From Candidatus Magasanikiibacteriota bacterium (lineage in GTDB: Bacteria > Patescibacteriota > Patescibacteriia > Magasanikbacterales > UBA922), in contig JBAYVA010000001.1 in the NCBI GenBank assembly GCA_041674805.1, positions 198,612 to 262,611 on the forward strand: DNA of 64,000 bases. Direction: 5' to 3'. The position numbers were made by a program, and so were the translations under genes. A model generated the notes under the pieces. The model was given only the letters and a program-made list of their open reading frames with translations, had not been told where the DNA came from and did not search any database. Positions within the stretch are counted from its first letter, which is position 1. Each line of letters begins with the position of its first letter. Below, piece after piece: positions 2 to 50,620 of this stretch.

Positions 2-1345
2 AAGACAGTCACTACAGTAAAGAAGACTGTTTCCAAAAAAACAGCTTCCAAAACTAATACAAATTCCCGTCCAAATAAAACTCTTAAACGGGTCCAAAAT
101 GTTGGTAAAAAAATTACTAACACAAAAAATAGTGTCAAAAAAGTACTTAGTAAAAGTGCTTTTAAAAGACAAAAAAGAAAAGAAGAAAAAACAAAAGTAA
201 AACTTGACAAATCACAATTTGACAAGAATTTTGTGGTACCTACAGAAGACAAAGTAGTACAATTGGTAAAAAAAGGACGTGAAAGAGGTTTTTTGACTGA
301 GCATGAAATATTACTGTTGTTTGATAGACTTGAGTATTATTTAGATGTGTTTGATAATTTTTTGGACAAAGTAGACAAAAATAGTGTTTCTATTGTAGAA
401 AGTCAGCCAGGTGGTTTACTCGGTAATAGATATAATACTCATAGAGAAACAGTCATGGTAGATTTACAAGGAGATCAAGCTGGTGAGAAGTCATTTTTGT
501 CTTTTGATTTGGCTAATATTTCTCAAGATTCTATCCAAATGTATTTGCGTGAAATTGGTAAGGTACCACTTTTGTCAGCTGACGACGAAGTATCTTTGGC
601 CAAACGACGTGAAAGAGGTGACAAAAATGCTGAACGAAAAATGATTGAAGCCAATTTGCGTCTAGTAGTTTCTATTGCCAAAAAATTTGTTGGTAAATCA
701 TTATCAATGCTTGATTTGATTCAAGAAGGAAATATTGGTTTGTTCCGTGCTGTCAAAAAGTTTGATTATCGTAAAGGTTACAAATTTTCTACTTATGCCA
801 CTTGGTGGATAAGACAAGCTATCACTCGTGCTTTGGCTGACCATTCTCGTACGATTCGTATTCCTGTTCATATGGTCGAGACAATCAATAGATTGCAACA
901 AGTTTCTCGTCATTTGCTTCAAGATCTAGGTCGTGATGCAACTCCAGAAGAAATTGCAGCTGAAATGGGTGAGGAAGTAGAAAAAGTCAAACATATTATC
1001 AAAATTTCTCAAGACACAGTCTCACTTGAAACTTCTGTGGGTGATAATGATGATGACGATACTTCACTTTCTGACTTTATCAAAGACGTCAAATCTGTTA
1101 GTCCTGCACAAGCCGCTGGCGTGGAATTACTCAAAGATTATATCAAAGAAGCGGTCAAAGATCTTTCTCCTCGTGAGAAAAAAATCTTGGAAATGCGTTT
1201 TGGTCTAGATGATGGTGTCACTCATACTTTGGAAGAAGTTGGTAAAGAATTTGGTGTTACTCGTGAACGTATTCGTCAGATTGAATCAAAAGCGCTTGAT
1301 AAAATTAAAGATTTTGATGTGATTAAGAAGTTGCGTGACTATTAA
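2..1345 (+). CDS. rpoD: RNA polymerase sigma factor RpoD (sigma-70). The frame is open from position 2, so the gene is 5' partial; the ORF track starts at GTG 233.
   Basis: Regions 2.4/3/4 are recognisable ([37 protein letters not shown]; [27 protein letters not shown]). A Lys-rich N-terminal region runs in frame back to the window start. Confidence 0.9.
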
Positions 1346-2414: not shown

Positions 2415-4193
2415 ATGTTACAATTCAAGCATTATATTTTCAAAAAAATTTTATTTATGCATTTTTTTTCTTATTTAAAAGAACATTTTATTGTTTTTAT
2501 TTTTTTATTAACCTTTTCATTTTTACCAAGCATTACCAAAGCTGATTCAGTTCCTTATGTCGGAGTGAGAGACGAGGGTTTGAGTGTGGAATACATTAGT
2601 CAATCAGTTGATGACGATATTCAAATCAAAGCGGGGGACAGTGTAAATATTATTTTCAAATTCAAAAATATTGGTACAAAAACTTGGGACAGTAACAGCA
2701 AAAATTATATTTCTGCTTTCACTATGGAACCTCGTTATCGTAATTCTGAATTTCGAGGTGACAACTGGTTGGGCGCTTATGAGACAGCCAAAATAAATGG
2801 ACAAGTGAAACCTGGAGAAATAGCTGAGTTGTCTTTGAACTTGAAAGCACCAAATAAACCTGGTAAATATATAGAAAAATTCTATTTGGCTTCAAACAAC
2901 TATTCATGGGTAAAAAATGGATACTTTTTTGTTGTTTTGAATGTCGTAGAAAATGTTACAGTTAGTGATATTGTCCCTGTCGTTAATGATGAAATTAGTC
3001 AAGTAGTTAATACTGTTGTAGCTACAACTACCACAAAAAATCTTAGTTTTTCTAGTGGAAAATTGTCAATGATTAGTAGTAAAGATTTTATTGCTAAAGG
3101 TGGGCAACAAATTCCTTTTATTTTGGGTTTTCAAAATTTGAGTCAAGTTGCTTGGAATGGTTATACTATTGCCATAACTGATGACAGCAAAGATTATAAT
3201 TTCATTGATGATGATTGGGCTTCAGCCAATGTAATTCTTTCACAAGATAAAGAAATTGTATCTTATACTAATACTCGTGATACTATTTATCTGCGAGCAC
3301 CAAACAAGCTCGGTGAGTACAAACTTAGATTACAGCTTTTTAGCGATAAAAAAGAAGTAGTAGGTGCTTATGTAGATATTATAGTAAGAGTGTTGGTCGA
3401 AGCAGAAGAAAATTATCTAGTAGCAAGCAAAAGTATTGATACAAATTATGTTTTTGAAATAGTAAAAGATGATAGAGAATATTTAGATAGTTTTGATTTG
3501 GTAAAGCTAAATAAAAAATTAAATACCTATTTGCCAGTGCTCATGTTTCATTATATAGAAGATATTTCTGCCAATACATCTGACAAACTTCGTTATAATT
3601 TGTCTTTTTCGCCAGAAAAGTTGGAGCAATTTTTGCAATATTTCAAAAAAAACAACATTGAAACTCTGACTTTTTGGGATGTAAAAGATATTTTGGAAGG
3701 TAAGAAGGATTTGCCAAAGAAAGCTGTGATTCTTACTTTTGATGATGGTTATGTGAGTCATTATAAAGACGCTTTTCGTCTTTTGCAAAAATATGAGATG
3801 AAAGGTGTGTTTTATATAATTACCAATGCTACTTTCAATACTAAAGAGCATCTCAATTGGGAGCAAATAAAAGAAATGTCTGATGCTGGTCAAGAAATAG
3901 GTTCACACACTGTCAATCATTTGGATTTGTCTTTGGTTAGCTTGGAAAAGCAGAAAAAAGAAATAGTAGATTCTAAAAAAATGATAGAAGAAAAAATTGG
4001 TAAGCCTGTAATTTCTTTTTGTTATCCTTCTGGAAAATATAGTAGTACAGCGCTAAAATTGGTAAAAGACAATTATCTTTTTGCCAGAACTACACAAGCG
4101 GGAAAATATTTTTCTTTTGATAACAGATATGAAAATCCAACAGTGAGAATTTTTCCCACAAGTGGTTTTACTTTGTTAGATATTTTGTTTTAA
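2415..4193 (+). CDS. Secreted polysaccharide deacetylase (NodB-homology domain) with an N-terminal beta-rich domain. An alternative start at M2457 is possible.
   Basis: Signal/anchor peptide. C-terminal NodB motifs (ILTFDDGYVSHY; GSHTVNHLDL; CYPSG). Confidence 0.75.
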   Translation: MLQFKHYIFKKILFMHFFSYLKEHFIVFIFLLTFSFLPSITKADSVPYVGVRDEGLSVEYISQSVDDDIQIKAGDSVNIIFKFKNIGTKTWDSNSKNYISAFTMEPRYRNSEFRGDNWLGAYETAKINGQVKPGEIAELSLNLKAPNKPGKYIEKFYLASNNYSWVKNGYFFVVLNVVENVTVSDIVPVVNDEISQVVNTVVATTTTKNLSFSSGKLSMISSKDFIAKGGQQIPFILGFQNLSQVAWNGYTIAITDDSKDYNFIDDDWASANVILSQDKEIVSYTNTRDTIYLRAPNKLGEYKLRLQLFSDKKEVVGAYVDIIVRVLVEAEENYLVASKSIDTNYVFEIVKDDREYLDSFDLVKLNKKLNTYLPVLMFHYIEDISANTSDKLRYNLSFSPEKLEQFLQYFKKNNIETLTFWDVKDILEGKKDLPKKAVILTFDDGYVSHYKDAFRLLQKYEMKGVFYIITNATFNTKEHLNWEQIKEMSDAGQEIGSHTVNHLDLSLVSLEKQKKEIVDSKKMIEEKIGKPVISFCYPSGKYSSTALKLVKDNYLFARTTQAGKYFSFDNRYENPTVRIFPTSGFTLLDILF

Positions 4194-4210
4194 GTTTCAT
4201 AAAAATAAAA

Positions 4211-4248
4211 AAACAATCTCGATGAATATCGGGATTGTTTTAAATTAT
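4211..4248. terminator. Hairpin terminator (acaatctcgat/atcgggattgt) shared by convergent genes
   Basis: 11-bp stem with one G-U pair, flanked by A/T runs. Confidence 0.5.
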
Positions 4249-4269
4249 GTTAGGTGATGTCGTTGAATT

Positions 4270-4584
4270 TTATAGCATTTTCTTCTTTTCTCCTTTGAAA
4301 GCGTGCCAGGCACCTTTGATTGATAGTGCAAATGATAAAATGACTATTGTTAAACCAGTATATATCAAAAATTTTGAGGCAACACTTTCCCATAGAAGGC
4401 CCAGAAACAAAATAACTATTCCTGGTATAATGACCATTTTTATTATTTTGTTTTCTTGTTCAAAATGGAACTTAGTAAATTCTGAATTAGTTTGGGTTAA
4501 CCATGATATTACATATCCAAGTTCGAAGAGATAAGCTGATGCGGCGACAATTTTTTCTTGTTTTGTAGTGTTAGTCGTTTCCAT
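4270..4584 (-). CDS. Small membrane protein (DUF4870-like)
   Basis: Two to three TM helices and an AASAYL motif; weak family resemblance only. Confidence 0.4.
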   Translation of the reverse strand: METTNTTKQEKIVAASAYLFELGYVISWLTQTNSEFTKFHFEQENKIIKMVIIPGIVILFLGLLWESVASKFLIYTGLTIVILSFALSIKGAWHAFKGEKKKML

Positions 4585-4619
4585 AATTTTTTGTTTAGTA
4601 AATAAAAAAATTGGTTAAA

Positions 4620-5138
4620 TTATTTGCTGAAAACAGATACAAATCTTCCTTCGTAGAGAAGTTTGACTACTTCTGTTGGACTGAATATTTTTCCATTCAT
4701 ACAAACATAAATGCCTGGTTTTAGCTCATGAATTTTTGCAATAGAATAACCTAGATTAAATGGAGCATCAGATGGTGAAAAACCAAGAAGTGGAATCATA
4801 CTGCCTGTAAAAATAATAATTTTATTATGTTTACCAAGATTTGCATCTAAATAGCGTGCTGTGTCTGGCATGGTATATGTTCCGTGGGTCACAATAAATT
4901 TTTTGTGAGGACTTTTTTTAATTTCTTTCAATACATTTGCAAGATCACTTTTTTTCAAGGCTCTACTATCTTTCATACAAATGGTTGTAAACTCTGTTTT
5001 TTCGTGGAGTTTCAGACTTTTTATATAGGCTGGTATTGAGGATTCTTTCAAAGTGTCTACTGTATCTTTTACGCCATTATAAAAAGAATCTATGGTACCA
5101 CCAGTTATGATGAAATGGATTGCATTTTTTTGTGTCAT
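4620..5138 (-). CDS. L-asparaginase N-terminal-domain-like protein (stand-alone, 172 aa)
   Basis: IITGGTIDS and HGTYTMPDTARYL resemble the asparaginase TGGTIAG and hGTDTMeetA motifs. The C-terminal domain is absent. Confidence 0.45.
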   Translation of the reverse strand: MTQKNAIHFIITGGTIDSFYNGVKDTVDTLKESSIPAYIKSLKLHEKTEFTTICMKDSRALKKSDLANVLKEIKKSPHKKFIVTHGTYTMPDTARYLDANLGKHNKIIIFTGSMIPLLGFSPSDAPFNLGYSIAKIHELKPGIYVCMNGKIFSPTEVVKLLYEGRFVSVFSK

Positions 5139-5314
5139 AATATTTAAAACAATTATAAATTCATATTACAATCATATCAAAAAAACAGTGACTTTTCAAT
5201 CCCGACCTAGTCGGGACGAGAAATTTTGATTTTTTATAACTTGCTATGAAGATGTTCTTTTTTATATTTTGTTAGTTTATTGTAAAATAATTAGTTACGC
5301 TGTTTTTGTATTAC

Positions 5315-5611
5315 TTATTTAAAATATTTTTTGGCACTTGGTCGGCGATGAGGACAGCCGGGCCAACAACAAGGTCGGCGTTTACCGGCCAGAAGATCAT
5401 CACACAAGCGGTCTAGATGTTCTTTTCTGGTTTCTTGTTTTTTTACGATGGTAACCCAACATATCCACTCGTTTCGGGCGAGGGGAGTGAGGCTGTTCCA
5501 TTTTTCAAGTACTTCTTTATTGGAAGCCAATGTTTCTTTCAAATCAGCCGGTATTTTGTGGAGTGTAAAAGGGGTGATTTGTTTGGGCATATTTTTATTA
5601 GTTATCGGCAA
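5315..5611 (-). CDS. YdeI/OmpD-associated (DUF1801-like) family protein
   Basis: NEWICWVTIVKKQETRKEHLDRL motif and a GC-rich C-terminal KRRPCCWPGCP tail. Confidence 0.5.
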   Translation of the reverse strand: MPITNKNMPKQITPFTLHKIPADLKETLASNKEVLEKWNSLTPLARNEWICWVTIVKKQETRKEHLDRLCDDLLAGKRRPCCWPGCPHRRPSAKKYFK

Positions 5612-5775
5612 AATAATGTCACCTAATGTTCAATTATATGTGCGAAATTTGGGAGAAGGAATTTTTTTACATTGAATTATAAATGTGAAAAATTCTTGAA
5701 CCGGATATGCCGTGTTAGCTAATGTAAAAAATTCTTTGTACAATGTTTATTTTCAGTACTTTTGAAAAATTTTTC

Positions 5776-6231
5776 TTACGAAAGTGTCAATTTATATGTG
5801 ATTCCATCTTTCCATTCTGGATTATTCCATTCTTCAAAGCCTAATTTTGCACAAAGTTTTTGCATTGGAAGATTTTCAAAAGCTGTTTCAGTAATTACAT
5901 ATTGAGATTTATGTTTTTTGGCATGGTTTATACAATCCTCCATAAGTTTTTTACCAATTTCTTGCTTTTGAAAATCTGGATTTACGAATATTTCACGAAT
6001 AAAGAAACAATTATTTTCCCACCAGTCTGTGTCACAAGAAACAAATCCGACAAACTCATCTTCTTGTTTCGCAACAATATAAAGGCTATTTTCTCTATTA
6101 AAATTATTTTTTAATAGGTCAATTGTTTTTTTGCCATATTTATAGGAAAAACCTTTATAAATTGATTCTTTATTGTGTAAAATTTCAATTTCATCTTTGC
6201 TTATTACTTTGTGATAAACGATATTGATCAT
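5776..6231 (-). CDS. GNAT family N-acetyltransferase
   Basis: Acetyl-CoA binding motif (IREIFVNPDFQKQEIGKKLME). Confidence 0.7.
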   Translation of the reverse strand: MINIVYHKVISKDEIEILHNKESIYKGFSYKYGKKTIDLLKNNFNRENSLYIVAKQEDEFVGFVSCDTDWWENNCFFIREIFVNPDFQKQEIGKKLMEDCINHAKKHKSQYVITETAFENLPMQKLCAKLGFEEWNNPEWKDGITYKLTLS

Positions 6232-6317
6232 AGAAAAATTTTTTCAAAAAAGTAAAGGTACAACGTTTATTAGAATTTTTTATTTCAGCTAACGTTCGCG
6301 TTTATGCGATGTGATAA

Positions 6318-7004
6318 TTAGTTTTCGTCCTTTGCAAAGTAGATCTCACCTGTTTGGGGCAAATTAAATTTATTAATTAGATATTTGACTAGTTGTTTGG
6401 TTGATTCTATCCTATCTTCTGGATTAGAGAGATATACTTTCTCATAAAGTTTAAAAAAATCCCTGTCTATTTCTTTTATTTTACTTTCCAATTGAAGAGA
6501 TTTTGGTAGCCACTCATTGTTCAATTCAAAAAAAAGTTTGACCATTTTATCCATGATTACATCCCACGAGTGATAAGCAAGTGTGCTGTTAGGTTTATTC
6601 AGTGTGTGTAAAAACATTGTACAGAGATATCCGGCCTCTTTTGGATCATTTTTTGGACCGAGTGACCAAACCCTATTTGCTTTTTTTTGAATTGTTTTCA
6701 TTTGTCCTGATTTGTCAAACACAATTTTACCGTGTGCAATAATTGAAAGTTCAGCATTACTTACTTTATCACGCCTAAAATCCTGATTATTGATAACTTC
6801 CGCCGTAGCACAGCAAATATCTACTAACAGACCTTTGTAGTGAAATGTTTTGTAATATGATTTACCCTTGCTTATTAGCACAGTGAAATCGTAGTCACTT
6901 GTGGCTACAAAGTCTCCTTCAATTCTACTTCCAGCATAAATTATACCCTCGCAAAAAGGGATTTTTTTAAGCTTTTCGATAATCAAATTTACGTTTGTAT
7001 CCAT
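6318..7004 (-). CDS. Nucleotidyltransferase-domain protein (Pol-beta superfamily, ANT/Lnu-like)
   Basis: GS-x9-SDYDFTVL nucleotidyltransferase signature at the N-terminus. Confidence 0.5.
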   Translation of the reverse strand: MDTNVNLIIEKLKKIPFCEGIIYAGSRIEGDFVATSDYDFTVLISKGKSYYKTFHYKGLLVDICCATAEVINNQDFRRDKVSNAELSIIAHGKIVFDKSGQMKTIQKKANRVWSLGPKNDPKEAGYLCTMFLHTLNKPNSTLAYHSWDVIMDKMVKLFFELNNEWLPKSLQLESKIKEIDRDFFKLYEKVYLSNPEDRIESTKQLVKYLINKFNLPQTGEIYFAKDEN

Positions 7005-16259: not shown

Positions 16260-18470
16260 TTAGACAAATAATTTGAAGACAAGAAAAAGTCCATATAATA
16301 ATGCACCTAAACCTAGCGAAATTGCTATTTTTTTATTTGCTGGTAATTTTTCTTGTTCTGTAGTTTCAGATATATTTTCTGAAGAATTATCAACATCTTC
16401 AAAAATTTCTTCATCTTCAGTTTCTTCTACTGAATCTTGTTCTTCTACTATTTTTTCACCACGTGTTTCTTCTATTTTTGGATTATTATTTGAATTATTT
16501 TTTGGTTTAGAATTTGTTTTTGCTATATCTAATATATTTTCTTCTATAGTATAAAGCACTGGTAAAATTTCCATGTCTTGTTCATTTTCTGCTACTTCTA
16601 CTATTTCTTCGGTACTAGTTGGCATTTCTTCTTCTAAAACAATTTCAATTGTAGTTGTAGGGATTTGTAGAGTGGTGGTTGCTGTATTTGAATTTGAAAT
16701 ATTTTCATTTGAAATGTTTGTTTTAGAAAAATCTTTTAAAATTTCATTCCAATTTTTATTCAAATAAGCTGGGATAGCATAAGATGTAATCCAAACCCTG
16801 GTTTGTTCAGTATTCTCTTCTTTTGAGGATATTCCACCATCTGATTGTTGTGCTGATTTTAGATAATCACTAGGTGTAGTTCCATTTTTATTCCAATCAT
16901 TTTCATTTTCATCAAGTGCATCAATAGCTTGTAGTGCCCAAGTTGTAGAAAATAAATTTGAATTAAAACTAGAATTATTATCTTGTTTTGATTTTAAATA
17001 ATTTTTTGCAGACTCAATTGCTAATATCACATTTTCATTTGTAGTATTCAAAGATTTTAAAGCTTGGATAGCTGCTGCAGTCATATCTATATCACCAAAA
17101 TTACCTATTTTAGTATTTTGTTTAGAAAGTAAAAAATCAGTGCTTATTTTGATTATTTCATCTTCATAGTTATAACCAGCATTAACAAGAGTAATAATAC
17201 CAAATATATCATCATTATAAAGAGTATTTTCGCCTATTTGTTTTCCATCAAAACTCTCTATTATTTTTTGAATATAATTTATAGAAGATGAATTATATGG
17301 ATTTTTATCTAAAGACATTAAAGCCATGGCTCTACGTTCATAATCTGTTATTTCAGAATTATCTGAAAGGGGATTATTTATTAAATAATTTGCAATACTT
17401 TCTTTTTGTTGAGAATTATTTGAATAGCTACCATAAGCAATTGCTGCCCAATCAGTATATAATGTAGAATCAAAAAAATTTCCGTTTTCAATTTTTGAGT
17501 TTAGATATACAAAAGCATTATCTATAAAATTATTTGTTGTATTAGATGAAGAGGATCCATTACTTTCAGATGGAGTATTTGTTGTTATATCATTTTCTTC
17601 TTCAGTGTTGTTAGAATTTTCTACTGGATTTATAGTCATTATTTCACTAGTAATAAATCCATTTTTTTTGGCATAAATTGTATAAGGTGTGGTAGTTGTA
17701 ATAAATAATTCATAAATACCGTCTTCATCAAAAATTTCTTCACCATTTAAAAATAATGTGCTACTAGCTGAATTTGATAATATTTCGTTCCAATTTTCAT
17801 CGTAACCAGAAGATTCTTTGATATTTAAAGTAGTTGTTGAATTTACAAAAGGTGTAGTAGTAGAAGTTTCAATTTTTAATTGAGATAATCCGTAAAATAA
17901 ATAAATATTTTCTTGTTCTTCTAATATTTCTTGATTAAGACCTTTGGTACCTGGTACATAATAATTATTGTACCATAACCAATAATTAAAATCAGAACCA
18001 TCATAATTATTTATTTTATTTAAAAAAACTTGATCACTATACCAATTTCCTAAAATAGCCCAATCTTTTTCTTTAGATAATTGTTGAATTGCACACCAAG
18101 CATTCAAAGTATTCTCTGTTCCGTTTTCAGTATTTGGACAAGCTGTAACAATAAAATCATTACTATATAATTCTTGATCATAAGTTTGTATTTGAAGATG
18201 AATTGTTGTCGTTGGCAATGGTTCAATTACAATATCATTATTTGGAATTTCTTCTGGTGTAGGTTCTTCAGTACTAGCTACTAAATTATTATCAGTGCTT
18301 AAAATAGCATTCTCAACTATAATTTCATCTTTTGTTTCTGTACTTTCTAAAATAAGAGGAACTTCTTCGGGATTTTCTCCCTCAGCATAAGCAAAATTTG
18401 ATATAGTCAAATTGCCAAATAAACTAAAGATTAAAACTAAATTTATTATTTTAAAATTTACTTTTTTCAT
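16260..18470 (-). CDS. Cell-surface protein with a prenyltransferase/squalene-cyclase-like alpha-alpha toroid repeat domain (transcobalamin alpha-domain-like) and a C-terminal TM anchor
   Basis: Signal peptide. Repeated helical-hairpin motifs (TDWAAIAYGSY, ERRAMALMSL, MTAAAIQALKSL, TTWALQAIDAL). Acidic region followed by a TM anchor at the C-terminus. Confidence 0.55.
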   Translation of the reverse strand: MKKVNFKIINLVLIFSLFGNLTISNFAYAEGENPEEVPLILESTETKDEIIVENAILSTDNNLVASTEEPTPEEIPNNDIVIEPLPTTTIHLQIQTYDQELYSNDFIVTACPNTENGTENTLNAWCAIQQLSKEKDWAILGNWYSDQVFLNKINNYDGSDFNYWLWYNNYYVPGTKGLNQEILEEQENIYLFYGLSQLKIETSTTTPFVNSTTTLNIKESSGYDENWNEILSNSASSTLFLNGEEIFDEDGIYELFITTTTPYTIYAKKNGFITSEIMTINPVENSNNTEEENDITTNTPSESNGSSSSNTTNNFIDNAFVYLNSKIENGNFFDSTLYTDWAAIAYGSYSNNSQQKESIANYLINNPLSDNSEITDYERRAMALMSLDKNPYNSSSINYIQKIIESFDGKQIGENTLYNDDIFGIITLVNAGYNYEDEIIKISTDFLLSKQNTKIGNFGDIDMTAAAIQALKSLNTTNENVILAIESAKNYLKSKQDNNSSFNSNLFSTTWALQAIDALDENENDWNKNGTTPSDYLKSAQQSDGGISSKEENTEQTRVWITSYAIPAYLNKNWNEILKDFSKTNISNENISNSNTATTTLQIPTTTIEIVLEEEMPTSTEEIVEVAENEQDMEILPVLYTIEENILDIAKTNSKPKNNSNNNPKIEETRGEKIVEEQDSVEETEDEEIFEDVDNSSENISETTEQEKLPANKKIAISLGLGALLYGLFLVFKLFV

Positions 18471-19050
18471 ATTTCCATTCTATATTATCCCCCGAATTAA
18501 CTTTTTGATAACTAATACCTATATTGGCACTTTTGCCATTTAGGTAGTAAATCCAATATAGTCCTTTTTCATTATCATTTTTTAAATTATTTATTTCTGT
18601 TACAAATTTTCCCATGCTACCGTAATCTTTTGTTTGAAAAATAAATTCAGATTTATTTTCATTTTGCAATTGTTGCATGAGTTTTTCTAGAATAATATTT
18701 TCTTCAGAAAAATTTATACGATAATTTTTATCATTGACTTTGAAATCTGCAAAGTAGGGAAGTTCTAATACTATTTTTTCTGTTTCTTTTGTACTTGTTG
18801 AGGTATTTGTTGCTACTATTTTTTCATTATTTTTTTTAATAGTAGGACTTGTTTTATTGATAGTTACTTTTGATTTTTCAATAATTGTTTTTTTTTCTTC
18901 TGGTTTATTTTCTGTTTGTTCTATTTTTTCAGCTTGCAAAATTTCTTCATTTTTTTTCAAATTTGTTTCTGGACGAAGAAAGAAAATTAACGAAGAAAAA
19001 AGAAGGGCAAAAAATATCAGCAAATGATATTTCCAATTTATTTTTTTCAT
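18451..19050 (-). CDS. DUF4430 (transcobalamin-like C-terminal/beta domain) protein, membrane anchored
   Basis: C-terminal GLYWIYYLNGKSANIGISYQKVNSGDNIEWKY matches the DUF4430 YW.Y.VNG...G...Y.LKdGD.I.W.Y signature. Confidence 0.6.
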   Translation of the reverse strand: MKKINWKYHLLIFFALLFSSLIFFLRPETNLKKNEEILQAEKIEQTENKPEEKKTIIEKSKVTINKTSPTIKKNNEKIVATNTSTSTKETEKIVLELPYFADFKVNDKNYRINFSEENIILEKLMQQLQNENKSEFIFQTKDYGSMGKFVTEINNLKNDNEKGLYWIYYLNGKSANIGISYQKVNSGDNIEWKYEKSKF

Positions 19051-19059
19051 AAAAAAAAT

Positions 19060-19245
19060 CTGCTTAAGTGAGCAGAAAGATGTAAAAATATTTCTTATTG
19101 TGATAAAAAATAAGAATTTTTTTCCTGCTCGGGATAAATTATACTTGAAGACCGGACTTAACTTTTGTAAAAGTTTTACCGTTGCGGCACAGTGGAGGAA
19201 TTTGACCTCACTTCCAACAAATATAAATTAATTTGTAATATTGTT
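19060..19245 (-). ncRNA. Candidate cobalamin riboswitch / structured attenuator leader upstream of the DUF4430 operon
   Basis: On the minus strand the leader reads GGAAGUGAGGUCAAAUUCCUCCACUGUGCCGCAACGGUAAAA...AAGUCCGGUCUUC. This resembles the cobalamin-aptamer GGUG.AA.UCC, CCACUGU, CCGCAACGGUAA and B12-box-like elements. Two hairpin+U-tract terminators follow; the second ends in U8 directly before the AUG. Confidence 0.4.
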
Positions 19246-49703: not shown

Positions 49704-49819
49704 AAAATTATTGTTATTTTTTATACTTTAATATATTCTACCATTTTTTAAAAAATAAATCTAAGTATTTTATATTTATATAACAAAAAAACGCTAATTA
49801 AAGCGTTTAAATGTGTTTG

Positions 49820-50321
49820 CTCGGCGAGTGGGGCTCGAACCCACGACCCACTGGTTACAGTTTCCTCTCTCTTTCGAAAAAGACTGGACTATTTCATCAC
49901 CCATGCCATAAGCCCCGATAAATCGGGGAGCATTAAGGGTGCGGAGCGCTTCGAATCCGTTTCTGCGAATCCTACTCCCACAAGGGGATAGTCTCTGAAC
50001 CTTCTTATTTTTTCAGAAGTATTTGTTTATAGACAAACCTTGAAAACAAGGATCTACAATTTATTACTTCAATTTTACCGAGGTAAAAATTTGAAAAGAT
50101 AAGCTTGGCTGCAGGTTGCCATCTTGACCTAAATCAAGAACAGGTTTCCTGTCTAACAAATCTATTTAGATCTGCAGTTTCTGCTATTACAATTAAGTAA
50201 GACAGAACAGTTCACTCCGTTGGCACTGTGGTGTTTCCACCGCAGGCTGCTATATTTAATTCCAATAAATCAGAATTACTTCTTTTAACAGCCAGTTGCT
50301 CTACCGCTGAGCTACCGCCGA
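49820..50321 (-). tRNA. tRNA-Asn(GUU) interrupted by a ~430-nt group I intron in the anticodon loop. Exons are 50288-50321 and 49820-49857; the intron is 49858-50287. CCA is not encoded.
   Basis: The joined exons give a 72-nt cloverleaf: UCGGCGG-UA-GCUC-AGCGGUA-GAGC-A-ACUGG-CUGUUAA-CCAGU-GGGUC-GUGGG-UUCGAGC-CCCAC-UCGCCGA-G. The intron carries group I R (GUUCAGAGACUA) and S (AAAUAGUCC) elements forming P7. The 5' exon ends in U and the intron ends in G. Confidence 0.65.
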
Positions 50322-50385
50322 ATTTGAATTGTAAATATTTTTTGTATAACTCTGTACGTTTTAACTCCCGACAAGTCGGGACTAT

Positions 50386-50415
50386 CGCTGAGCTACCGCC
50401 GAATATTTGAATTGT
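50386..50415. repeat. Direct repeat of the tRNA 5' end plus 11 nt of upstream flank (28 of 30 nt identical to 50305-50332), with a CCCGAC hairpin in between
   Basis: Read directly. Confidence 0.6.
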
Positions 50416-50620
50416 GCTTATTTTATTACAAATAAACCGCTAAAAGTATAACATAGTGTTTTTTCTTTGTCAATAAAAAAGTTGTCCACTGCTTTTTTGT
50501 CTAAAACAAGATTATTTAGCTATTTTTTGTGTATAAATGGAAATAGACAAAATGACAAAAAAGTTATAAAATAGATAAGCTCATATAAAATAAAAAAGTT
50601 TTGCAAAATTTTCACAATTT

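Follow-up and report, generated by a model that had tools for sequence, protein, structure and literature searches.

Bacterial tRNA genes carry several described kinds of group I intron. The classical ones are found in cyanobacterial tRNA-Leu(UAA) between positions 34 and 35, in tRNA-fMet at 33/34, in tRNA-Arg(CCU) at 36/37 and in tRNA-Ile(CAU) of Azoarcus at 36/37. These self-splicing introns resemble the group I intron described here in that they lie in the anticodon loop, mostly have no ORF, form P1 from the 5′ side of the anticodon loop and have exons held by the body of the tRNA, but they differ from it in insertion site, in their compact length of 200–250 nt and, according to PMC13011429 and Williams (2020, 10.1101/2020.01.27.920355), in belonging to subgroup IC3, which is without P7.1/P7.2. 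A survey of 81,441 genomes with tFind recorded 21 tRNA/site settings for group I introns, including one named 'Asn.4Ug' that is occasionally confused with Thr.2Ug; this source gives counts by phylum only, without structures or experiments (Williams 2020, 10.1101/2020.01.27.920355). The closest described systems are those of Nakagawa et al. (2026, mSystems, PMC13011429), who reported that 15 of the 22 intron-bearing tRNA genes in 95 complete Patescibacteria genomes are tRNA-Asn(GUU) genes interrupted at 35/36, and that standard tools miss or mislabel such genes in this phylum. The 15 Asn introns come from WWE3, Saccharimonadia, UBA1384, Paceibacteria, Microgenomatia and Dojkabacteria. [quoted passage not shown] Moreover, in vitro self-splicing was demonstrated for the tRNA-Asn intron of GCA_016700035.1, with excision exactly at 35/36, and ligation of its exons is blocked when omegaG is changed to C (PMC13011429).

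The 64-kb stretch of DNA analysed here (the window) very probably contains, on its minus strand, a tRNA-Asn(GUU) gene of a Magasanikbacteria-like member of the Patescibacteria, split between U35 and U36 by a 430-nt IA-like group I intron of the 'Asn.4Ug' type without an endonuclease (Table 1). It shares with Asn.4Ug (Williams 2020) the tRNA-Asn host, position 4 of the anticodon loop, U-1 and omegaG. With the Patescibacteria introns at 35/36 (PMC13011429) it shares the host gene, the site, the phylum and a mis-call as Thr(UGU) by ARAGORN, and like most of them it has no endonuclease. [quoted passage not shown] That rarity was overstated, since the tRNA-Asn 35/36 intron is the characteristic type in Patescibacteria (15/22, PMC13011429) and since our own scan found at least 120 loci in many phyla. 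The intron is thus a further example of a described and experimentally validated class, in the phylum where this class is commonest. However, Magasanikbacteria are not among the six classes with Asn introns in the complete-genome set of PMC13011429, so that the intron is a new member rather than a re-description of one of the 15 published examples.

Without its intron mode, ARAGORN reports no tRNA in the whole window, while the joined exons give a regular cloverleaf of tRNA-Asn(GTT) in the same program. The original prediction had named these same exon and intron coordinates, and the sequence reads exactly as it quoted; it had also derived a spliced tRNA-Asn(GUU) with the loop CUGUUAA and discriminator G, which the joined-exon cloverleaf reproduces, and a 5′ exon ending in U and an intron ending in G (49858), both of which are present and invariant in the orthologs. 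CCA is not encoded in exon 2. The G+C content is 39% in the intron, 64% in the exons and 31% in the window. Run on the unspliced gene, ARAGORN -i does call a tRNA with a 430-nt intron, but as tRNA-Thr(tgt) with the junction at 33/34, two bases upstream. On this reading the gene would be a tRNA-Thr(UGU), exon 1 would end in ...GGCU, exon 2 would start with UGUAACC and the product would carry CUUGUAA (Thr, 33/34) in place of CUGUUAA (Asn, 35/36). Its cloverleaf is as regular as the Asn version, because the two junctions differ by a shift of two bases only. However, the intron would then end in C instead of G, and U33 would form a Watson-Crick pair with the guide base A40, with no U·G wobble, whereas the junction at 35/36 alone combines U-1, omegaG and an anticodon loop of 7 nt. 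Read from the sequence, the spliced tRNA has U1-A72 and the discriminator G73, and this combination is typical of bacterial tRNA-Asn. The identity of the two alternative products to intron-less tRNAs of the retrieved loci favours Asn at most weakly, in an underpowered comparison with only two Asn and three Thr(UGU) genes. Furthermore, the same mis-call has been documented for ARAGORN and tFind (PMC13011429; Williams 2020, 10.1101/2020.01.27.920355), and a spliced homolog has been sequenced, with excision at 35/36 (PMC13011429). We therefore consider a tRNA-Thr(UGU) gene very improbable; the 430-nt intron in the ARAGORN -i call stands, while the identity is a two-base artefact. The gene is treated below as tRNA-Asn(GUU).

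Table 1. Features of the split tRNA-Asn locus; all lie on the minus strand, and intron position 1 corresponds to window position 50287
Feature	Window position	Intron position	Strand	Basis or remark
Sigma-70-like promoter, TTGACA-17 nt-TATACT (putative)	50445..50473		(-)	Consensus match, 11/12
Leader 'ghost': copy of tRNA 5′ end plus hairpin	50366..50402		(-)	Between promoter and gene
tRNA-Asn exon 1, 34 nt (acceptor 5′ strand, D arm, anticodon stem 5′ strand, C32 U33 G34 U35)	50288..50321		(-)	tRNA positions 1-35; joined-exon ARAGORN
Group I intron, IA-like, no ORF, 430 nt	49858..50287		(-)	RF00028, structure, homology, ORF scan
P1-loop hairpin insert, 28 nt	50255..50282		(-)	Alignment A1
Internal guide sequence GCAGCC	50245..50250	38-43	(-)	Pairs with exon GGCUGU (50293-50288) = P1
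P2 hairpin, GAAA loop, GCGGUGGAAACACCACAGUGCC	50227..50244	44-50/55-61	(-)	Right after internal guide sequence
P3 5′ strand CGGAGUG	50213..50219	69-75	(-)	Pairs with 49948-49942
J3/4 AAC		76-78	(-)	Hand-built structure
P4 5′ strand, in two parts		79-80 and 137-140, partner 173-178	(-)	Insert between the parts
P4 insert, two hairpins, 56 nt	50152..50207	81-136	(-)	Compensatory changes
P4 distal CAGG, J4/5 AAA, P5 hairpin, J5/4 CAA, P4 3′ strand CCUGCA	50110..50151		(-)	
P5		144-169	(-)	4 compensatory pairs
P6 with ~76-nt lineage-specific extension	49999..50109	179-289	(-)	6 compensatory pairs
P7 5′ strand GACUAU, end of R element GGUUCAGAGACUAU	49988..49993	295-300	(-)	Invariant
P7.1	49987-49975	301-313	(-)	100% paired, one-sided changes
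P7.2	49972-49953	316-335	(-)	100% paired, one-sided changes
P3 3′ strand CGCUCCG	49942..49948	340-346	(-)	Structure and family-wide covariation
P8, extended, tip hairpin CCCCGAUUUAUCGGGG	49898..49941	347-390	(-)	4 compensatory pairs in tip
P7 3′ strand AUAGUC, S element GAUGAAAUAGUCC	49887..49892	396-401	(-)	
P9 hairpin, GAAA loop	49864..49883	405-424	(-)	Hand-built structure
omegaG, last intron nucleotide	49858..49858	430	(-)	Invariant in orthologs
tRNA-Asn exon 2, 38 nt (U36 A37 A38, anticodon stem 3′ strand, variable loop, T arm, acceptor 3′ strand, discriminator G73)	49820..49857		(-)	Joined-exon ARAGORN, ortholog comparison
Terminator-like hairpin and T run	49782..49808		(-)	Consensus match, 11 nt after tRNA

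The Rfam model RF00028 (Intron_gpI) matches the intron at 50281-49865 on the minus strand over its full length (1-253), with 65.7 bits against a gathering score of 50 and E = 2e-14, and the orthologs score 52.7–63.3 bits, apart from two (L132 and L136) that are not matched at E ≤ 0.01. In the structure, which we drew by hand, P1 consists of exon positions -6 to -1 paired with intron 38-43 and of intron 1-2 paired with 36-37 (8 pairs, 100% paired); the wobble U35·G38 at the 5′ splice site is invariant in seven distinct orthologous sequences, and the pair beside it covaries between A-U and U-A. P10 has at most 2 bp, formed by U+1 and A+2 of exon 2 with A37 and U36, and the orthologs do not conserve it; it is probably the anticodon stem of the tRNA that keeps the exons together. 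P2 is 98% paired and has two pairs with compensatory changes. P4/P5 is found as CAGG-AAA-CC...GG-CAA-CCUGCA at 50151-50110. P7.1 and P7.2 sit between the 5′ strand of P7 and the 3′ strand of P3 and are paired in seven orthologs. Hairpins in this position are the hallmark of subgroup IA, and by them the intron is IA-like. The IA introns of phages, such as T4 td and Twort orf142, likewise have P7.1/P7.2 between P7 and P3′, but they interrupt protein-coding genes and often come with homing endonucleases. No ORF of more than 36 aa occurs in the intron on either strand, and the longest one overlapping it on the intron strand has 36 aa. The original prediction fared well on most of these points: the covariance-model match lies above the gathering score, P7 does form from the R and S blocks (GACUAU at 49993-49988 with AUAGUC at 49892-49887), the guide pairing of P1 with its U·G at the splice site is there, and the homing-endonuclease ORF is absent as it had said. 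One point needs correction, since the block it took for a P4/P5-like region (GCGGUGGAAACACCACAGUGCC) is in fact the GAAA-capped P2. The P10 that it suggested verifying alongside P1 is limited to the pairs given above.

Relatives of the intron were collected by scanning for the S element, a gap, UG|UAACC and the T arm, which gave 7 viral loci and at least 120 genome loci from many phyla; among the matches listed, at least 107 split tRNA-Asn genes could be extracted, making 108 sequences with that of the window. BLAST matches to many of these family members cover the region from the R element to P7.1. Archaeal-looking relatives were also seen in passing, on DPANN contigs (L017 and L112). The sequence GCAGCY occurs within the first 150 nt in 73 of the 108 family members, and those without it mostly have an ORF in the P1 loop (both among the matches listed). 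The core was aligned with GCA_016700035.1, GCA_026016225.1 and GCA_004102645.1. The experimentally studied intron of GCA_016700035.1 has an R element/P7 block identical to that of the window intron (GAAGGUUCAGAGACUA) and an S element/J8/7 block that is one base off (GAUGAAAUAGUCC in the window, GAUGAGAUAGUCC in GCA_016700035.1), and it shares the guide GCAGCC, the P3-J3/4-P4 motif ACnGnGUGAAyUG, the motif GGyAAyCyGCAGCCAAGC and the terminal UG before UAACC. In addition, the intron of GCA_026016225.1 (Paceibacteria) has the same P7.1/P7.2 layout. The two introns differ in size, 430 nt in the window against 234 nt in GCA_016700035.1, and the window intron adds the P1-loop hairpin, the 56-nt P4 insert, the P6 extension of about 76 nt and a longer P8. 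The structure and the splice-site signals are seen in the window intron itself, and catalysis would be expected from its membership of this family and from the in vitro splicing of so close a homolog.

Two MAGs of Candidatus Magasanikbacteria (loci L059 and L066), placed in the Patescibacteria group by NCBI, have exons identical to those of the window, and their introns of 407 and 400 nt are 81–85% identical to the window intron. A metagenome scan bracketing the P4 insert added 8 further orthologous loci, so that ten are now available, with six distinct sequences besides that of the window; the split gene is present in all, and CG1_02_32_51 is among the genomes. In the alignment of these seven distinct sequences (A1, 85% mean column identity), the hand-built structure is 95.8% paired, against 37–47% when the 3′ partners are slid by 1–3 columns. 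Double-sided changes occur in 20 pairs, a number that none of 500 shuffles reaches, and the compensatory changes are located in P2, both hairpins of the P4 insert, P5, P6 and the tip of P8. No change occurs in P3, P4 or P7 among the close orthologs; what supports these helices is therefore either distant relatives or conservation by itself, and for P4 and P7 the invariance gives no covariation evidence either way. For P3 such relatives are informative: among 97 usable members listed, drawn from many phyla, 93% have perfect complements between the R and S elements, as against 24% with permuted partners, with 23 different 5′ heptamers and a complement nearly always preceded by AG (among the matches listed). 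The P3 in Rfam's own alignment of the window has non-canonical pairs and was rejected in favour of the manual one, which is backed by structure and covariation; the 56-nt P4 insert, which the covariance model failed to span, accounts for the misplacement.

Selection is visible in both parts of the locus. The cloverleaf is 100% paired in all orthologs, and in the acceptor stem, whose pairing spans both exons, the double changes G4-C69 to A-U and C5-G68 to U-A leave it always paired. This argues for one gene under selection and not for unrelated fragments, which disposes of the scenario, raised in the original prediction, that the two halves belong to unrelated pseudogenes. Both exons, the guide sequence, omegaG and all core strands are invariant across seven distinct orthologs, and this invariance, together with the compensatory changes in the variable helices and the covariation of the acceptor stem, points to purifying selection on the tRNA as well as on the ribozyme. 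The same data bear on whether the locus could be a decaying pseudogene, in which insertions in P1, P4, P6 and P8 stop splicing while another tRNA-Asn serves the cell. The intron is indeed longer than typical family members (430 nt versus a median of 274 nt among the matches listed) and long for a member without an ORF, an insert breaks up its core helix P4, part of exon 1 recurs upstream in degenerate form, and the Rfam scores of the orthologs are borderline. Decay of this kind is nevertheless hard to reconcile with seven distinct orthologs that keep the exons, the guide, omegaG and the core strands, with compensatory substitutions that extend into the P4 insert itself, or with an acceptor stem covarying across the exons. 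Moreover, most Patescibacteria genomes have one tRNA-Asn copy (Table S2, PMC13011429), and no second copy accompanies the split gene in the cases that were validated (PMC13011429). A pseudogene is thus improbable, and a functional split tRNA-Asn gene is the reading that we keep.

The surroundings of the gene speak to its history. On the upstream side, the flanking genes occur in the same order in L059 and L066 with 70–88% amino-acid identity and comprise an M23 peptidase (L059 only), a 117-aa ORF, an RNase-H-like exonuclease (Pfam), undecaprenyl-diphosphate synthase, an FAD/NAD oxidoreductase (Pfam) and the next two ORFs. The flanking DNA is 75–84% identical in these two loci and is thus about as diverged as the intron. 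This synteny places the window in a Magasanikbacteria-like Patescibacteria (CPR) genome. A match to a Csd3 domain had at first pointed to Campylobacterota as the host, a guess that proved wrong in view of the synteny with the Magasanikbacteria MAGs. It could be supposed that the intron is an active homing element acquired recently by horizontal transfer, since its family spans many phyla and includes viral contigs, since an HNH-type ORF occupies the P1 loop of many relatives of 500–630 nt (PMC13011429), and since the 28-nt P1-loop hairpin of the window could be a scar at that ORF site. But the window intron has no ORF above 36 aa, it sits at the same syntenic locus in all orthologs, and it has diverged together with its host (intron 81–85%, flanks 75–84%, in L059 and L066). 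The shared locus and the joint divergence fit vertical inheritance within the clade, and we regard recent mobility as extremely improbable.

The four lineage-specific additions of the intron are peripheral, and one of them interrupts a core helix. Among the matches listed, family members longer than about 500 nt carry ORFs. The P1-loop site holds an HNH-type endonuclease ORF in many of the 500–630-nt relatives, as also found in PMC13011429, while the hairpin present there in the window is common to the window and the ortholog L129 only; the ortholog L130 has another hairpin at the same site. The addition that stands out is the P4 insert, which splits the 5′ strand of P4 between U79-G80 and C137. 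Its length was measured across the family by fuzzy motif matching: the site holds 0–1 nt in 69 of the 93 resolvable sequences listed (family set plus orthologs, duplicate loci included), and 54–57 nt in all orthologs of the clade, where it forms two hairpins with compensatory changes. Unrelated inserts of 31–68 nt, each with two adjacent hairpins, occur at the same P4 site in at least five other lineages, namely L035 (Saccharibacteria), L104 (Uhrbacteria), L118, L072 and L023 (Omnitrophota). A named peripheral element at this site is not known to us. The insert could impair folding of the intron; its conservation and its compensatory changes argue that it is tolerated. It is conceivable, although doubtful, that the two-hairpin P4 module is an undescribed peripheral domain of IA-type introns and that it serves, together with the ghost and the CCCGA...UCGGG hairpins, as one of several RNA- or protein-binding modules tuning the maturation of tRNA-Asn in CPR bacteria.

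Compared with the published picture, the new increment is small: a member from Magasanikbacteria with an unusually rich periphery and an insert inside the core helix P4. Only the two-hairpin P4 module and the archaeal-looking relatives are leads beyond that picture. The new member could interest RNA structural biologists, and the general picture is unchanged. For genome annotation, the gene is missed by default ARAGORN and mislabelled as tRNA-Thr in intron mode, a problem already published, with the consequence that genomes seem to be without tRNA-Asn and that completeness scores suffer. If the cell has no other tRNA-Asn gene, which is the usual state in Patescibacteria, it can read no asparagine codon unless the ribozyme works.

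The signals around the gene suggest how it might be expressed. As judged from its consensus match, transcription of the unit probably begins at the sigma-70-like promoter, whose -10 hexamer is preceded by TG, and TTGACA...TATGCT is found at the equivalent place in the orthologs L129 and L130. Downstream, a hairpin and a T run occur at the same place in every ortholog. One transcript would probably run from the promoter (~50473-50445) to the terminator (49808-49782), and in it the intron would fold into the P3-P8 and P4-P6 domains with the P3/P7 pseudoknot, a fold supported by the covariation. The end of exon 1, GGCUGU, would then pair with the guide GCAGCC, U35·G38 would mark the 5′ splice site and free guanosine would attack it, after which the terminal G430 would occupy the G-binding site of P7 and ligation of the exons would recreate the anticodon loop CUGUUAA. 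The tRNA would be completed by RNase P, by trimming of its 3′ end and by the addition of CCA. In this scheme the P1-loop hairpin, the P4 insert and the long P6 and P8 would be peripheral decorations of the lineage.

The leader of the window differs from those of the introns in PMC13011429 by its tRNA-like ghost, in which 17 nt from the 5′ end of the tRNA are repeated without a mismatch (UCGGCGGUAGCUCAGCG, 50402-50386) and joined to a hairpin (UCCCGACUUGUCGGGA, 50381-50366). The orthologs L059, L066, L129 and L130 have no ghost, and there the promoter directly adjoins the tRNA. Similar ghosts are present in L132 and L134/L136, where they run on into a repeat of intron bases 1-12, and this extension into the intron suggests that they arose by partial tandem duplication.

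Introns of the bulge-helix-bulge type are the rule in archaeal tRNA genes. Two of the relatives carrying a split tRNA-Asn gene, L017 in a Ca. Pacearchaeota MAG and L112 in a Nanoarchaeota MAG, have archaeal-looking tRNA-Asn exons (G1...C72), interrupted at 35/36 by a group I intron. Against the Rfam group I intron model RF00028, the intron of L112 reached 82.4 bits, while that of L017 did not score above the threshold. The genes neighbouring these two loci include those for two archaeal or eukaryal markers, the wyosine methyltransferase TYW3 and a KRR1/Pno1-type KH protein, and therefore both contigs look genuinely archaeal. An archaeal tRNA gene that carries a group I intron may exceed the split tRNA-Asn gene of the window itself in novelty. 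Mis-binning was the explanation given for such an archaeal hit in the tFind survey (Williams 2020, bioRxiv 10.1101/2020.01.27.920355), and archaea are not discussed by Nakagawa et al. 2026 (PMC13011429). The same split tRNA-Asn was also found in two Woesearchaeota MAGs (L071 and L087) and a Methanosarcinales MAG (L094), with strong RF00028 scores of 77–97 bits; since the exons of these three are of the bacterial type (U1...A72), their contigs may be mis-binned bacterial DNA.

In addition, the pattern running from the S element to exon 2 was matched in seven IMG/VR contigs filed as viral (L002–L008); six of these yielded the split tRNA-Asn in full, with a group I intron of 197–239 nt, L004 being left out as its stored DNA does not contain exon 1. 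The source contigs of L002 and L005 are 436 and 470 kb long, respectively. These seven may represent jumbo phages, or CPR genome fragments that were filed as viral.

The introns of five related tRNA-Asn genes (L035, L104, L118, L072 and L023) carry independent inserts of 31–68 nt at exactly the point of the P4 5' strand that is occupied in the window, and each insert folds into two adjacent hairpins. In the introns of 500–630 nt (L016, L021, L029, L032, L041, L048, L050, L062, L065, L072, L104 and others), an ORF whose conserved start reads, for example, ...KRKYADRAEYLK lies immediately after the 5' splice site, within the P1 loop; this ORF presumably encodes the HNH endonuclease that PMC13011429 reports. 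The same site holds short hairpin inserts in the window and in its orthologs L129 and L130. Furthermore, near-identical hairpins of the form YCCCGA-(3–4 nt)-UCGGGR occur at differing peripheral sites of the orthologous introns; they could be copies of a small, mobile hairpin module, or they could provide a shared binding site.

Hairpins of this type are likewise contained in partial tRNA copies, here called ghosts. The ghost of the window is located in the pre-tRNA leader, between the promoter and the real tRNA-Asn gene, and ghosts are also present upstream of tRNA-Asn in the orthologs L132 and L134/L136; the leaders of four other orthologs (L059, L066, L129 and L130) have none. In L132 and L134 the ghost runs on into the initial 12 nt of the intron, and at least two ghost units stand in tandem in L134; together, these features suggest a partial tandem duplication with a hairpin in place of the anticodon arm. 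In L130, a ghost of the 3' end of the tRNA (CACCACUCGCCG) comes after one such hairpin.

Features located in the window and in related loci
Feature	Location	Strand	Details
736-aa protein	window 16260-18470		weak cobalamin-binding-domain match
DUF4430 protein	window 18451-19050
AdoCbl (B12) riboswitch	window 19106-19242	-	RF01482, 62.3 bits (threshold 50)
YCCCGA...UCGGGR hairpin	window 49913-49928		P8 tip
YCCCGA...UCGGGR hairpin	L132/L134		P5
YCCCGA...UCGGGR hairpin	L130		P1 loop, and ~70 nt downstream of its tRNA
Ghost in pre-tRNA leader	window 50366-50402	-	exact 17-nt copy of tRNA-Asn 5' end plus hairpin UCCCGACUUGUCGGGA
Split tRNA-Asn, L017	JAFCDH010000004.1 893-1390		Ca. Pacearchaeota MAG
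Split tRNA-Asn, L112	JBFYLU010000046.1 2419-2995		Nanoarchaeota MAG
Intron-split and intact tRNA-Asn	L058 ~3596-6650		~3 kb or less apart
LOOT RNA	L129 5860-5984	+	RF03000, 86.6 bits (threshold 46.4)

Elsewhere in the window, the AdoCbl riboswitch lies upstream of the genes for the DUF4430 protein and the 736-aa protein, an arrangement suggestive of an operon for the uptake or binding of B12 in a CPR genome. In the Ca. Saccharicenans subterraneus MAG (L058), intron-plus and intron-minus tRNA-Asn paralogs stand side by side, and on the orthologous metagenome contig L129 the split tRNA-Asn and a LOOT RNA lie about 4 kb apart.
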